Source: Lama guanicoe
Taxonomy: Eukaryota
DNA: 64,000 bases
Direction: 5' to 3'
NCBI GenBank assembly: GCA_013239625.1
Contig: MU053557.1
Coordinates: forward strand, 4,370,123-4,434,122
The notes below the pieces were generated by a model that saw only the letters and a program-made list of their open reading frames with translations, made no database searches and was not told where the DNA came from. Of the stretch, positions 2,461-51,157 are shown piece by piece; within the stretch, counting starts at the first letter, position 1; the number at the start of each line of letters is the position of its first letter. The position numbers and the translations under genes were made by a program.

Positions 2461-3649
2461 TTTCCACCAGGAGAGTCCATCTTTTCCCCTGTTGGGGATC
2501 AAGTGAAAGAGAAGGAAGGAGACAATAATGAGAGGAAATTTGTAATGGGTGCATTTTGTTTTATTCTTCATGGATTCTTTTCAGAGAGGTCCGATCAATT
2601 TCTGAGCCTTGGAACTAAGGGGCAAGCCCATGTCCCCTAGGTAGGCCGTGGCTAAGCATAAACTAGGAAACCAGATTGTGCTGAGGGCTGGCAGCACACT
2701 CGTTCGCCGTGACTCAGGCACAGTTTGAGTGAGCTTCACTGGCCAGGGCCTGGGAGGAGGCAGAGGAAGCTGCCTGCTAACAGCACATGGGTTTGTGCTG
2801 AGTCAAAGCACCACTTTCAGGTCAGGAAGCCCCTGATGTCTGGAAATGCTCTTCCCATTTCTCTGCCCAGGTCTGTGTCTGCTTCTGAGTCTTCACATCA
2901 GAGAATATCAGGATGGGACCGGCACTGAGTGAGCGCATACCTCCTTAGTGTACTAAAAAACCCCAGGTTCCAACAGGCAAGGTCGGTGGCAAGGTAATAC
3001 AAGAGCCAAGAGATAACCACCTCTCCTGGCTTGTTTTATTATTATTTTTCTAGTGCAAAGAGGGCAGAAACTGTAGTTTCTGAATGTTTCATTTCTCCAG
3101 GAAGAGAAAACAGGTTTTGAAATCACAGCAGCAACACCCATGACACTGCAGCACTGGAGTCCTAGGTCATTCCTGCTTTCTTTTTGACTGCACTATATTG
3201 GCTTTGCAACCTCGGGCCTTGTGCCCAGAAGCCACAACTGCCATTGGGGAGCTTCCTTTGTTATTAGACCATTCTGTCTCTATTCCACTGCTTAGTGTTT
3301 CTCTTCGTAAAAATTGTAGCAAGCATTTCTAAATATTACAATCAACCCTGACAACCTGTTAGGTTTTTATTGTTTTGTTTTGTTTGAGAGGGACCCACAG
3401 TTCTCAAAATATATATTGCAACAGTACAGTCTGCTCTGTTCACAAATATTCAGACTTCCCTTCTTGCTTCACTTCCCATAGTGTCTTTCTATAAATCCAA
3501 GTGCTCATCTAGCATCTTCAACCTAAGAGAACCAAGAGTCAACCACAAGGACCTGAGGTGGGCAGCCTTAGAAATCTCGTTTCATAAAATTGTGGAAGAG
3601 TTAGTGGTGTCAGTTTAGGTATGAGTTTCTTGACATTGACTTATGTTAT

Positions 3650-12119: not shown

Positions 12120-12650
12120 TTGAAGGAAATTTGAAAATGCAGAATAGTATAAAGAAGCAAATAAAAATTACTCATACTTTCCTCTTGTGGGTATTATACT
12201 TCTGTTAATATTTTGGAGTTCTCTTTTTTTCAGGTCTTTTTTTTCTATGTATATGATAGACGGTATATATTTAAAAATTAAGGCTGCCTCTCTCACTCCC
12301 TCATCTTTGGAGACAGCCTGCACTCTGTCTATGGAGTGTGTATCTACTTTTACTTGAGCACCCAACCCCCACACCTCATGGCCTACCTCTTGCTTTCTGA
12401 AACAGCCTACACTCTATAGTATGCATCTTTCTAAATAAATCTACCTTTACTCAAAAAAATAAAATAAGATTATTCTAAGTTATGGTTTATCTCCTGCTTT
12501 TTTAAACTTATCTTTATATTGTATTTCCACATGTTATAAAATAATCTTTTAAAATACTATTTTCACTGCTGCATAAAATTTCATATGAATGTATCAAAAT
12601 TAATTTAAGCTTTTCCCTATTGTTGGACAATGATAGTTTAATTTTTTTCT
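12120..12650 (-). mobile_element. Old L1 (L1ME-type) 3' remnant, interrupted by the 12283-12460 insertion
   Basis: AT-rich 'gaaatttgaaaatgcagaatagtataaagaag...ctgttaatattttgg...ctgcataaaatttcat...ttccctattgttggaca' is typical of L1ME 3'UTRs. Confidence 0.6.
12283..12460 (+). mobile_element. Poly(A)-tailed LTR U3/R-like fragment (probable L1-retroposed ERV RNA end)
   Basis: LTR-like 'cagcctgcactctgtctatggagtgtgtatct', AATAAA at 12434-12439, A-tail from 12453; imperfect TSD aaaattaag (12274-12282) / aaaataag (12461-12468). Confidence 0.5.
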
Positions 12651-20389: not shown

Positions 20390-20680
20390 AACCAGCCCCA
20401 TGGGGCCATTTGAAAATGTGTGGAAATGCTTAAAATTGTCACCGTGACAAAGCAGACACTCCTAGCATTTAGTGGCTAGGGGCCAGGAAAGCTAAAGTTT
20501 CTGCAATTTCCAGGACAATAAAGAGTCATCCCACACAGTGGGGAGGGTATAGCTCAGTGGTAGAGTGCATGCTTAGCATGCACAAGGTCTTGGGTTCAAT
20601 CCCCAATACCTCCAATGAAAAAAAAAAAAAAAGAATCGTCCCACACAAAATGCCAATAGTCTTCTTCTGCAAACACCAGA
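20390..20680. mobile_element. MER20-related MITE hosting the SINE
   Basis: 'ggccatttgaaaatgtgtgg...agcatttagtggctaggggccagg...aaaatgccaatagt'. Confidence 0.55.
20538..20629 (+). mobile_element. tRNA-Ala(AGC)-derived SINE (camelid Vic-1 type)
   Basis: Full tRNA-like body (A box tagctcagtgg, anticodon arm gcatgcttagcatgc, B box ggttcaatccc, ending cctcca) plus an A tail; TSD aaagagtcatcccacaca (20520-20537) / aaagaatcgtcccacaca (20630-20647). Family name from recall. Confidence 0.85.
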
Positions 20681-41760: not shown

Positions 41761-43452
41761 TGAATCAAAGGAATGTATAAAAATGGCCCCAAATGTACAT
41801 TTTCCTGTATCGGTGATTTTTTCTTCTGTTTTCTCCTCTCTCATTCTCTAATTATTCTTTCTATCCTAAAATGTTGTTTCTGGTCTCTTCTCTTTCCCTT
41901 CTCTTTTTCTCTTTCTTTTTCTAGCTTTCCTTCTTTCTCTCACTCTCTCCTCTTTCTCTGCTTCCCGTCTTTTTACTATCTTTCTCCCTTAATTACCCAC
42001 AACAGAAAGAAATTATATTTTTACTGTTTTTTCAGAGTTTTATCTTTTTGTCTTCAAAAAGCTGGGTGTGAGAAGAAGAACGAAGATGAGGATGTGGAGG
42101 AGGAGGAGGAAGGCAGTGGAAGGAGGAGGAGGGAGGTGAAGAGAAAGGAGAAGGGGAGGAAGAGGAAGAAGAATAAAAAATAATAATCTGCTTTTACTCC
42201 CCCTCTGTAACCTGATACATTTAATAAGGTTTAAATGTTGGTAGCTTCCAGTGTAGGAGCTAGAACATCTACTCCAAGCATGGAGAGCAGCAAGGTTGAG
42301 TAAGGCTGAGCCCTGGGATTTGGATATTATTTACTCCAAAGCCATCAGAGAGAAAGAAAAAGTCACAAAACATTAAGTGTGAATGTTTTGTAGGCAATAA
42401 AAATGGAAATAGAATAGAGTTCTGGAACATTTTCAAAACACAAGAAGAAGACTCCTCTTTTAGAAAAGGAACTTAAAAAATCTAAGATATAAACAAAATT
42501 ATGCACAAGAATATTTGTCACAATATTATTTAAAATAATGAAGAATTGAAACAGCTTAAACATCTAAAAATAAGTGAAGAGTTAAATCATTTCTGGAACA
42601 TTTATGCAATGGACTACTAAGAATGTTAAAAATTTTTTAAAATAATCAAAATATCAAGTTACCTTTAATAATTTATTCAATGTCTTTTTGTTGAGCTGCT
42701 ACCTGCACTATAACACAGGCTGGGCATTCAGTGGTGGACACAGCCCATGCCCTTACACAACTTAAATTCAAATTAAAAATATAGATTTTAAACAATTAAT
42801 TGTACAAGTAATGAATTAAATGCCATTTAATCCTTATTTCAGTAAACACGCAATTCTATAACATAGTTTGTGTTATTAGATCCATTTTACAGATAAAAAC
42901 ATGAGGCTCACTGAGGTAAACAGAAGTTAGGTGGCAGAGCTGGAATTCAGATCCCAGTGGCCTGACTCCAGAGCCCAAACTCTAAACAAATCTCAAGGAA
43001 GGGCACAGAGCTGTCAGATGAGCCCCTCCGAGGCCCAACCAGGGAGAAGACCTAGCCCAGACCCAAGTATAAAGCAAAATTTTGTGGAAAAAGCAGTCTC
43101 TGCCCAAGACCTAAAAAATGGGCTGCAGTTTTTTAAGAGGCTCCTGACAAGGATGTGGGGACACTTTCCAAGAACTGAAAGCTCAGGAGGACTGCATGTG
43201 CTTTACCGACAGGGCTGGGGGACAAGGGACGGGGTGGGGGTGGGGCGGTAGGGGAGGCAGAAATGAGGCCAGAAGGGTAACCAGGGAACTGATGCCATAG
43301 GGCCCTGAAAGCTCAGTTACCACATTTAAATTGACCCTTAAAACTACTGAAAGTGTTTGAAGCAGAAAAGCATCAGGGTCAGTTTTCCATCTACAGAATA
43401 TAATTCTGGCAGCCCGGTGGAGAATAATTTGAACGCGTCAAGAATGAAGGCC

Positions 43453-43910
43453 GACCGGCAAAGCCCACGAACAACTCCCAGGAAACAATAGAACGTGGGT
43501 AATAAAATAAAGTCTAACCTTTTCTTCCATGTGCTTAGTCTAGTTTCACTTGCTCATGGAGTGCCGTGCAGAGGCTTCACCAACCGGCACCTCAGACCTG
43601 GTGCAAAATGTCTGCTCCCGGACTCGTCACTGGGCGGCTAGCTGTGTGTAGAAACCCGGCGCACGACACCGCAATTCAAGATGGCGGTGGCTGGCCGTGC
43701 GCCAAGACGCTGCACGGGGGACTGCCCTCCAGTCCCAGAGCGCCACGGCTGTGCCAGACTCGCGAGAACTGCACGAACCCTATAGGGCAGCCCTGCCCAC
43801 AGCCTTTATGGGCGGGCATGTGCTCTAGAGCAGGAGCTTGCACCTCTCTATTCTTTGATGGAAGAATAAAGCTTTCCTTTGCTTCTGGGAATTCAAAAAA
43901 AAGAAAGAAA
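43453..43910 (+). mobile_element. CpG-rich, poly(A)-tailed, TSD-flanked retro-insertion of non-L1 RNA (ERV2 LTR-like 3' end)
   Basis: TSD aatgaaggcc at 43443-43452 and 43911-43920; AATAAA 43865-43870; A-rich tail from 43895; YY1 motif caagatggcg; about 23 CpGs by hand count. The mechanism is well supported; the ERV identity is inferred. Confidence 0.75.
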
Positions 43911-44015
43911 AATGAAGGCCCAGAGGCCAATTAGAAGGCTACTGCAGTCAAACAGCAGAGAGATGATGATGTGAGAACCAGAATGGAAGAAGTAAGGAAA
44001 AAAGATATCTGGTCC

Positions 44016-44672
44016 TGCTGCCGGTGGATGCAACTGGTGTTCCAGGTTCTTGTCCCATCCCAGAAAGAATTCAGAGACAAGACGTAGTGGTTAAAAAAAG
44101 TAAAGTGAGAATTTAATAAAGTATGGATAGTCACTCTCAGGGGAGAGCAGACAGGCTCAGGTGAGCGGCTGCCTTGTGTTTCTTTGGCAAGTTAATCACA
44201 TAGGGTGCAAAAATGAATGGGCAGAATATTCATTGGGGAGGGAAGGGTTTGGGGTCATATTCCCTGATTACCATCCCAACTCCACCTTCCCAAAAGGAGA
44301 AGGGATTTTTGTTCTTATTTAGTCTGGATCAGAAGCGTCACAGCGTCAGTGCATGATGGGTACTTCTGATCTGCAAGGCTAATTTTATTGAAATAAGGGC
44401 ATAATGAGCAAAAGGTTACATTTGGACACTGGAAATTCTTGCCTTTTCTCACCTTTCTTTGTTGGTCTCCAGGTCACTCATCACCCCAAAAGGTGTGACC
44501 CCTTATCAGCCGAAAGGTTTCTGCTTTTCTTTCTCTGCCCAGGGACCCCTGGTGCTTACATGATGTATGGTTTCCTGCATTTGGCTTGTGCCCCTTCTTT
44601 CTGCCCAATTCCTGCCATTTGGTCTATGTTCCCCTTTCTCTGCTCATATCTAGCTATCTGCCCGCTCTAACA
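44016..44672 (-). mobile_element. ERV1-class solo LTR, 657 bp
   Basis: TG...CA termini, 4-bp TSD gtcc (44012-44015 / 44673-44676); minus strand starts TGTTAGAGCGGGCAGATAGCTAGATATGAGCAG; ATTAAA poly(A) signal on minus near 44112-44117. Confidence 0.9.
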
Positions 44673-46647
44673 GTCCCAGAAATATGCTGCAAGGAAAGCT
44701 GTTAGACATTAATTGAATATGGGGAGGTGAGAGAGGGGCGGAAATGGGAAGCTAGGATGAGGCTCACGTACAGGTAGATCAAGTAATCTGCCAAATGAGG
44801 TGCCATTTACTAACAGAGGGGACACAGAAGTCAGGGGTGGGGATGTCATTTTGTGGGAGGAGGTAATGAGTTCACCTGAGGACAAGCTGGGTTGAAGCAC
44901 CTCTGTAGCATTTAGGTAGCAATGCCCAGTGAGAAGGTAGAGTCAAGCTCAGGAGAAGGAGCTGGGCTAGAGTTCTGTGTATCTGATTGATGACTGAGCC
45001 TTGGGAGTGAATGAGATTCCCTTGGGAGGAGCGTGTAGTGAGAGGATAAGAAGGCCGGACAGAATCTGAAGAACACCAACAGGGAAGGGTTGAGCCAAAG
45101 AATAAGACTGAAAAGAACAAAAATGACTGGAGAATGAGCAGCAGCCAGAAAAGCAGCAAGGACAATGCGTACGGAGGAATAGTGTGGTGTCCTGGAATCC
45201 TGCAAAGAGAATAACTCCTGAAGGCAGAAGTAGTCTGCAGACAAAGAAATGTGAACTGCATTTAGAAACCAGGAAGTTGTCGGTCACCTTTGGGAAGCCA
45301 GTTTCAGTGGCAAGCTGGGGGCAGAAGCCAGACTCTCTGGTAGCTGATGAGCAGATGAGTAGGAGGAGAAGAAATGGAGATGGCACATGGAGACACAGGG
45401 CTATAGAGGCAAAGAGAAAGGTGGTGGGGCAGCTGGTGCAGAACCCATGCTAAATACTGGGTATCCGTTCATAGTTATCATGATGTGAACAGATGAATTA
45501 GACCAATTTCTCTTTGCATGGGACTAGAACTGATAAGCAACGTTACTACTAGTTCAGGAACCACTGAACTTCCAAATCACTGGATTTCTCTAAAAGGAAA
45601 ACACCAAAAATAAAGATTATGGAGAATATCACAGCATTTGATTTTGACACCAAGGAGGCTACAACTGACCTTTTGATTCTACAGCAATAATAAAAATTAT
45701 TTTTAGTATAATAATATCAGTTAACACTTGTTGATCACTCATTATGTGTTGTGTGTTATTTTAAAGACTTGACACATATCAATAATTTAATCCTCACAGC
45801 AACTTGTAAGTCATTATCCCCATTTTGCAGATGCAGGGAGTTGAAGGAACTTGTCCACAGACACACAAGTAAGTATCAGAGGAAAGATTCTTTAGGGGTG
45901 TTTCTTCCTGACTTGTCCCAGGGACAGAGGAGAAAAATAAATTGACAGAGTCTAGGGCAGGAAACGTGAAGTAATTCTGAGGTTGCCAGTGTACTTCCAT
46001 TCCAGAAAAGCCCTGGCATGAAAGGAGAACAAACTGGTCTTCAGACACTCTCGGTTCCTGTTTCCCAGTGTCTCAGGAGCAGACAATGGGCTTCCCTGAG
46101 CCAAATGCTTTAGGCTCTGCTGGCACTAACCACTTAACTATGTTCTTTGAAAATCTAGCTGTCTGATGGCAGGAATACATCAGTGAACTAAAGATCCCAG
46201 AGGACTACTGAAAAGTAGAAAGCAAAAAAATCTTTCTTAGAAATGGTCCTCCCAATTTGATGCCATATCTGCACACCTTTATGCAATCTACTGAGTGCTT
46301 CCATACTCATTATCTCATTTAATTTCCACAACAATCCAAAGGTAGACAAGGAGGGATTGTGGCCCCTGGACCTTTGCACATCCTGTTCACTCTTCTTGAA
46401 ACATTCTTTCTCGTCTCCCCTGTTCTTATGTTACTGCTGAGTCATTTGGCTTATCGTTTTCTATGCCTTGGTCCACTGAGTTAAAGGAGAAGATAACAGT
46501 CTTTGGTTGCAGACTATATGAGATTACGATCTATGTCGCTCCTTAAAGGGAAGAAACATCAATATCAGTCCATTCTTGGCTGCCTGAGTACCCCAGAAAT
46601 ACTCAAGAATAAGTGAAATCTAAGCTACTTAGAACTTTAAGAGGCTT

Positions 46648-49673: not shown

Positions 49674-51157
49674 CTAAGCAAGGAGGTGAAAGAATTATAC
49701 ACAGAAAACTATAAACCATTGATGAAGGAAATTAAAGAAGACTTTAAAAAATGGAAAGATATTCCATGCTCTTGGATTGGAAGTATCAATATTGTTAAAA
49801 TGGTCACATTGCCCAAGGCAATCTACAGATTTAATGCAATCCCTATCCAATTACCCAGGACATATTTCACAGAACTAGAACAAATCATAATAAAATTTAT
49901 ATGGAACCATCAAAGACCTAGAATTGCTAAAGCATTATGAAGAGAAAGAAAGAGGCTGGAGGAATAACTCTCCCAGACTTCAGACAATACTATAGAGCTA
50001 CAGTCATCAAGACAGCATGGTATTGGTACCAAAACAGACATATAGACCAATGGAACAGAATAGAGAGCCCAGAAATGAACCCACAAACTTTTGGTCAACT
50101 CATCTTCGACAAAGGAGGCAAGAATATACAATGGAATAAAGACAGTCTCTTCAGCAAATGGTGTTGGGAAAACTGGACAGCAGCATGTAAAACAATGAAG
50201 CTAGAACACACCCTTACACCATATACAAAAATCAACTCAAAATGGATCAAAGACTTAAACATAAGACAAGATACAATAAACCTCCTAGAGGAAAACATAG
50301 GCAAAACATTATCTGACATACATTTCAAAAATTTTCTCCTAGAAGAAATAAAAGCAAGAATAAACAAATGGGACCTAATGAAACTTACAAGCTTCTGCAG
50401 AGCAAAGGAAACCAGAAATAAAACAAGAAGAAAACCTACGGAATGGGAGAAAATTTTTGCAAGTGAAACCGACAAAGGCTTGATCTCCAAAATATATAAG
50501 CAGCTCATACGACTCAATAAGAAAAAAATAAACAACCCAATCCAAAAATGGGCAGAAGACCTAAACAAGCAATTCTCCAAGGAAGACATACAAATGATCA
50601 AAAAGCACATGAAAAAATGCTCAATATCACTAATTATCAGAGAAATGCAAATCAAAACTACAATGAGGTATCACCTCACACCAGTCAGAATGGCCGTCAT
50701 TCAAAAATCCAAAAATGACAAATGCTGGAGAGGCTGTGGAGAAAGGGGAACCCTCCTACACTGCTGGTGGGAATGCAGTTTGGTGCAGCCACTATGGAAA
50801 ACAGTGTGGAGATTCCTCAAAAGACTAGGAATAGACTTACCATATGACCCAGGAATCCCACTCCTGGGCTTGTATCCAGAAGGAAATCTACTTCAGGATG
50901 ACACCTGCACCCCAATGTTCATAGCAGCACTATTTACAATAGCCAAAACATGGAAACAGCCTAAATGTCCATCAACAGGTGACTGGATAAAGAAGAGGTG
51001 GTATATTTATACAATGGAATACTACTCAGCCATAAAAACCGACAACATAATGCCATTTGCAGCAACATGGATGCTCCTAGAGAATGTCATTCTAAGTGAA
51101 GTAAGCCAGAAAGAGAAAGAAAAATACCATATGAGATCGCTCATATGTGGAATCTAA
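49674..51157 (+). pseudogene. L1 ORF2p C-terminal portion (post-RT region plus CCHC motif), one frameshift near 49937
   Basis: [59 protein letters not shown]; 406-aa open stretch 49937-51157; lacks endonuclease and RT core, so it cannot be autonomous. Confidence 0.95.

Follow-up and report, generated by a model that had tools for sequence, protein, structure and literature searches.

The insert at positions 43453 to 43910 of the 64,000-nucleotide Lama guanicoe stretch analyzed here (the window) is probably a copy of the U3 and R regions of an old class I endogenous retrovirus (ERV1), followed by a tail, enclosed by a target-site duplication and made by the L1 machinery from a polyadenylated proviral RNA. 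An earlier note on this DNA had proposed an L1-type insertion of an ERV RNA ending at R without U5, and the duplication, the tail and the LTR alignment all agree with that proposal. Poly(A), a duplication of 5-15 bp and a U3-R end are described as marks of L1 processing of ERV RNA (PMC5016936, PMC5537654, PMC6114882). The corresponding features are present here: loss of U5 at the end of R, poly(A) after a signal, and a 10-bp duplication.

The flanking 10-mer occurs exactly twice in the window, as the 5' copy (43443-43452, + strand) and the 3' copy (43911-43920, + strand) of the target-site duplication, and the pair encloses 458 bp with 23 CpGs. An AATAAA polyadenylation signal lies in R at 43865-43870 (+ strand), 24 nt before a degenerate poly(A) tail at 43895-43910 (+ strand), where intact LTRs proceed into U5. 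Every element of this anatomy had been reported in the earlier note and was found again. A lenient search at 3000 random window positions returned a repeat of at least 10 bases in the insert's geometry at only 4 of them. With one mismatch allowed, the duplication lengthens to 13 bp (43440-43452) and begins at TC/AAGA, which on sequence grounds is plausibly an L1 endonuclease-type site. The L1 endonuclease consensus is given as TT/AAAA (PMC5016936), to which the 10-bp reading offers a poor match. No Rfam family matched the insert body at E≤5, and one chance match fell on the tail.

Searching the insert against its own genome gave 55 matches from the 40 candidates scored out of 343. The long matches covered nearly the whole query, and nine of the ten best non-self matches spanned query positions 2-4 to 435-436 at 67-70% identity. 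Matching LTRs begin with TG three bases ahead of the insert's first base and carry about 75 bp of U5 past its end, up to CA. All 47 distinct full-length U3-R copies proceed into U5, as recognized by motif in 45 and by eye in the other 2, and AATAAA falls within the final 45 bases of 29 of them. By alignment, the U3 and R of the insert occupy 43453-43894 (+ strand), starting at about LTR base 4 and stopping at the poly(A) site, with private gaps of 3, 8 and 17 bp. The insert thus reads as a single LTR without U5, colinear from end to end. The spliced or deleted two-part structure that had been suggested for it is contradicted by this colinearity and by the two larger gaps, where GT..AG was found in 0 of 47 copies. 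The 5' part, earlier likened to an Env leader or Rec-type region, proved to be U3: the segment 43453-43570 aligns inside single LTRs in 47/47 copies at a median of 79% and is the best-conserved part of U3. Pfam returned no match, Env leader included, for the 49-aa and 131-aa frames, in a scan of pieces with at least 20 residues, a length that the N-terminal piece of the earlier note does not reach. The reported absence of a polypurine tract stands, and its attribution to splicing into U3 falls, because in 3' LTRs the tract lies 5' of the LTR start and so outside the insert. The CAAGATGGCG motif at 43677-43686 (+ strand), which we take to be YY1-like, is a family trait, its 9-base core being present with at most one mismatch in 38 of the 47 copies. 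U3 also holds a splice-acceptor-like site at 43514-43538 (+ strand) with a branch-like motif, a pyrimidine run and AG. AG stands at this column in 27/47 copies, and the acceptor is unused in the insert and used in a retrocopy, L118, described below.

Two LTRs in register were found in 7 of the 10 fetched 10-kb regions. Pfam matches were obtained for 11 of 31 internal open stretches (Gag_p30, RVP, RNase_H domains and rve/integrase), with Gag_p30 at E 2e-8 versus Gag_p24 at E 0.008, and the best PDB matches of the internal frames were an MLV/XMRV-type RNase H (E 5e-33; HIV 3e-5) and a p30 capsid. At eight primer sites, 14-16 of 18 bases agreed with tRNA-Arg genes of this genome. Among 19 automatically called solo LTRs, some with miscalled ends, 4-bp duplications were perfect in 5 and agreed at 3 or more of 4 bases in 12. 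In the copies seen, the 3' LTR begins less than 1 kb beyond the integrase-core frame, too close for env to fit between them. Class I ERVs have 4-bp duplications around intact copies; class II ERVs have beta-type Gag and Pol, a Lys primer site and duplications of 5-6 bp. Judged by these sequences, the parent family is class I (ERV1, gamma-like) and not class II, and the betaretrovirus-like (ERV2) assignment made earlier is overturned by Gag_p30, the MLV-like RNase H, the tRNA-Arg site and the 4-bp duplications. As observations on the family itself, L046-L055 are broken proviruses with internal regions of 1.8-6.2 kb (four measured). L074, L075, L076 and L060 share many rare bases, which suggests a subfamily or a common misalignment, and the pairs L017/L040 and L006/L011 look like segmental duplicates.

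The insert appears to interrupt an old host repeat at 43340-44011, presumably L2-like. Both flank motifs recur together at two other genomic places, 37 and 35 bp apart; the predicted spacing is 37 bp if one repeat copy was kept, 27 bp for none and 47 bp for two. The alignments past the motifs were weak, with left-flank scores inside the shuffle range. The clean rejoining of the host claimed earlier is therefore borne out by spacing at two paralogous repeats, which fits one copy, and not by alignment beyond the motifs; we regard the rejoining as having modest support from sequence comparison. A similarity search for the host repeat gave self matches only, and 406 kb of fetched DNA contained no significant pair. 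The insert was present in all runs with coverage of a junction. A separate solo LTR of an abundant family lies 95 bp from the insert at 44016-44672, with a 4-bp duplication (44012-44015 and 44673-44676) and, by eye, on the minus strand.

All 40 exact matches to a 20-base R motif were read: 38 proceed into U5 and two, the insert and L081, stop with a tail. Tail-pattern searches added the tailed copies L093 and L118. A strict long-tail pattern search of the genome found none, and 6 of 9 places returned by a loose tail pattern were chance. The four tailed copies are about 45, 85, 442 and 570 bp long and match the insert at 62-76% over the longer alignments and at 92% over 38 bp of L081. Their sequences point to separate events and to no amplified family. 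The two short tailed copies of the insert's family, at 1433-1540 of L093 (about 85 bp) and 1483-1575 of L081 (about 45 bp), have exact duplications of just 7 bp; that of L093 reaches 10-11 bp with one gap, and L081 is the weaker candidate.

In the mechanism that we propose, L1 ORF2 would have nicked the target at the TC/AAGA site, the nick would have been primed on the RNA tail, and R and then U3 would have been reverse-transcribed up to a premature stop close to the LTR start. Joining of the 5' end may then have relied on 10 nt of homology shared by the target overhang and the provirus immediately 5' of the LTR. Copying would have taken place in the distant past, possibly when the family still produced transcripts. 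5'-Truncated L1 insertions are reported to carry microhomology (PMC10760644), and either chance or microhomology would be required to place the truncation within 4 bases of where the LTR begins. The possible microhomology lies at 43438-43447 (+ strand), where the end of the target agrees over 10 nt with the provirus about 35-45 nt 5' of the LTR start. The match, noticed post hoc, reaches 10 nt in 3 of 21 copies and at least 9 nt in 4 of 21, and its mean score was reached by 55 of 6000 random controls and 10 of 921 L1-site-like controls (about 0.5-1%). A simple join of this kind would keep the roughly 33 intervening bases, and their absence from the insert counts against it. We therefore take this post hoc match as a weak hint of a proviral template. 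In two runs guessed to be RNA (X17 and X18), contigs of a paralogous LTR change to poly(A) some 21-22 nt past the signal position, no more than about 3 nt from the insert's site. The insert has neither an R-U5 5' end nor internal viral sequence, and 5'-truncated forms are permitted among L1-retrotransposed ERV loci as described in PMC6114882. Proviral RNA as the template is what we infer, and it is unproven because the insert holds no internal viral sequence. No source copy appeared in the best 40 of 343 candidates, in 18/18 scored candidates or among the 47 copies (nearest 0.25).

The same L1 mechanism could have acted on a different template, a host read-through or long non-coding RNA ending at the poly(A) signal of a solo LTR, after the spread of the family had ended. 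Such a template would account for the lack of internal sequence and for a duplication that is still perfect. It also agrees with the contigs of a paralogous LTR in the two RNA-guessed runs that end in poly(A) at the insert's site, and with L118, a retroposed chimeric RNA with the same end site. Against it, the 47 copies (nearest 0.25) and the 18/18 scored candidates include no closer source LTR, the target shares a match with the provirus 5' of the LTR, and the U3 acceptor is unused. We consider a host-RNA template rather unlikely. An ordinary solo LTR that later lost its first bases and U5, with an A-rich stretch and a repeat arising by chance, would explain a start almost exactly at the LTR start and a divergence like that of solo LTRs. 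It would leave to coincidence a repeat of at least 10 bases found at 4 of 3000 control positions, a break at the poly(A) site as in three other tailed copies, and a host spacing that agrees with one repeat copy, and we hold it to be very improbable.

Membership of an amplified retroposon family that derives from an LTR and has a master copy, of the SINE-R or TINE type, is equally hard to sustain, and very improbable in our view, even with three more tailed copies of the same LTR family (L093, L118 and L081) in hand. These copies differ in length and in sequence, the scored candidates (best 40 of 343; 18/18) included no near-identical copy, and U5 is kept in 38/40 motif copies with nothing returned by the strict tail pattern. 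The retroposon family raised as a possibility in the earlier note thus finds only 2 tailed members in 40 motif copies and four tailed copies that are not close relatives. The reading originally favored, a betaretroviral RNA, spliced or deleted, in which U3-R follows an Env or Rec leader, has a precedent in a retroposed spliced HML-2 rec-like RNA (PMC3590776) and found no support here. It asks for a junction where 47/47 copies place 43453-43570 within single LTRs and 0/47 show GT..AG, and for class II parents where gamma-like proteins, an Arg primer site and 4-bp duplications were found. The colinear alignment to single ERV1 LTRs refutes it, and we give it almost no credence. Our preferred reading remains an L1-made copy of a proviral U3-R transcript.

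The CpG richness from which youth had been argued is a property of the family, whose copies hold 5-42 CpGs (median 27), with at least 23 in 31 of 47. Excluding CpG columns, the insert-to-copy distance was 0.286 versus 0.281 from copy to copy, and the 5' and 3' LTRs of four proviruses diverged by 0.29-0.33. The claim of youth fails on these grounds, the insert being as diverged as other copies and present in a diverged relative. Word coverage of 43100-44300 was 0.88-0.91 in fourteen runs with three organism labels, 12 of them guessed to be DNA and the kind of the other 2 unstated. The left junction was crossed by contigs of five further runs from four studies, with differences of about 3% in the flank and 6-8% in the insert. 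These contigs cross from the flank into the insert, and the diverged relative therefore has the insertion. A list of 21 insert differences, which omits rows 43190 (outside the compared flank) and 43849 (from paralogs), has 12 touching a CpG; 9 of these are transitions, with 6 CpGs lost here and 3 in the relative. Differences centered on CpGs in both lineages are neutral decay. The copying step is dated between the spread of the family and the species split, and family distance cannot date the copying itself. A perfect 10-bp duplication is somewhat unexpected at the age of the family, and the insert may postdate the proviruses. The 5' duplication copy of the diverged relative differs by one substitution and an additional base; the 3' copy is spanned with zero differences by a contig of DNA run X5. 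No sister copy of the insert was found among the 47 copies. The 3' LTR of L049 was considered and rejected as a sister, its FastTree pairing being 0.96 and its 5 shared rare states within background. Contigs from RNA-labeled runs cover flank and insert, a type of evidence that cannot show transcription, strand or ends, and forty unplaced letters on an X18 contig had no match within the window. The insert would now be a neutral, methylated relic.

A second LTR family was sampled as the best 40 of 1573 first-look candidates ranked by likeness to L118. Seven of its 37 distinct sampled copies (L133, L136, L137, L152, L159, L164 and L170) are tailed and R-only. They have neither U3 nor U5, begin close to one shared point behind a TATA-like box and finish with an A tail. 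For 5/7 a duplication of 7-16 bp was called; that of L159 is degenerate and that of L133 ambiguous. R-only copies lie 0.133 from each other versus 0.136 from full LTRs, with no clustering and no diagnostic column. L156 and L166 are ambiguous. In the window itself, 12282-12471 is an R-only second-family copy that has an AATAAA-like signal and an A-rich tail, lies at a TTT/AAAA site with a degenerate duplication, and is TINE-like. L118 (G000:C3072, about 14050024-14050624, minus strand), flanked by a perfect 14-bp duplication and ending in an A12 tail, passes from the R of the second family, cut at a GT donor, directly into the U3 of the insert's family at the acceptor. From this structure L118 appears to be a retrocopy of a spliced LTR-to-LTR RNA. 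The 60 kb lying 5' of the LTR that matches L118 best held no partner for the retrocopy's 5' part. In mouse oocytes, splicing of 5' exons from LTRs to other LTRs is known (PMC5538554).

Taken together, these copies would form an undescribed TINE-like layer of L1-mobilized LTR transcripts: rare U3-R and R copies of the ERV1 family, to which the insert belongs, frequent R-only copies of the second family from many source LTRs independently, and at least one spliced LTR-to-LTR RNA, with the 5' end of the insert set by 10-nt homology. We advance this combined picture tentatively, with a little less than even confidence. No camelid description of such elements appeared in the literature searched, whose scope excluded repeat libraries, subscription journals and the supplements of PMC8605555. 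Dfam, Repbase or those supplements may already name them.

The remaining observations in the window concern other elements. A 408-aa open frame at 49931-51157 (+ strand) had no Pfam match and is, we assume, the C-terminal part of L1 ORF2. ARAGORN called a tRNA-Ala(AGC) at 20543-20614 (+ strand), possibly a tRNA-derived SINE. Scanning 150 of the 151 open frames of the window for a host gene gave a Pfam match in none. Taken by itself, the insert is probably a neutral relic, and its presence or absence could be scored as a marker. The tailed R-only copies outweigh it in importance: they preserve where transcription began and where poly(A) was added in ancient LTR transcripts of the germline, and would provide, beyond tarsiers, a second case of the TINE kind.

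Among known systems, the processed pseudogenes of HERV-W resemble the insert in being class I, with a 3' LTR of U3-R, poly(A) and a 5-15 bp duplication, and they sit at an L1-type site, as the insert may do (PMC5016936, PMC5537654). An Arg primer site, seen in the parents here, is also common in HERV-W and has low taxonomic value (PMC5016936). Unlike those pseudogenes, the insert has no R-U5 5' end or internal sequence, and its parents were seen without env. Tailed copies make up 2 of 40 motif copies here, whereas they account for more than two thirds of HERV-W members (PMC5016936, PMC5537654). The insert is the same in kind as the L1-retrotransposed ERV loci of PMC6114882, with extreme 5' truncation. 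The retroposed HERV-K(HML-2) rec-like mRNA at 2q32.1 shares the L1 hallmarks on ERV RNA, but that locus is class II and spliced whereas the insert is class I and unspliced (PMC3590776). Tarsier TINEs are likewise LTR-derived, polyadenylated and L1-mobilized pieces; however, there are about 30,000 of them, derived from transcripts that arise within an LTR, whereas the insert retains almost the whole of U3 and lacks close siblings (PMC5059674). The R-only copies of the second LTR family fit TINEs far better than the insert does (PMC5059674). The insert itself is likely a 5'-truncated, L1-type processed ERV copy, a known sort of event, as with HERV-W.
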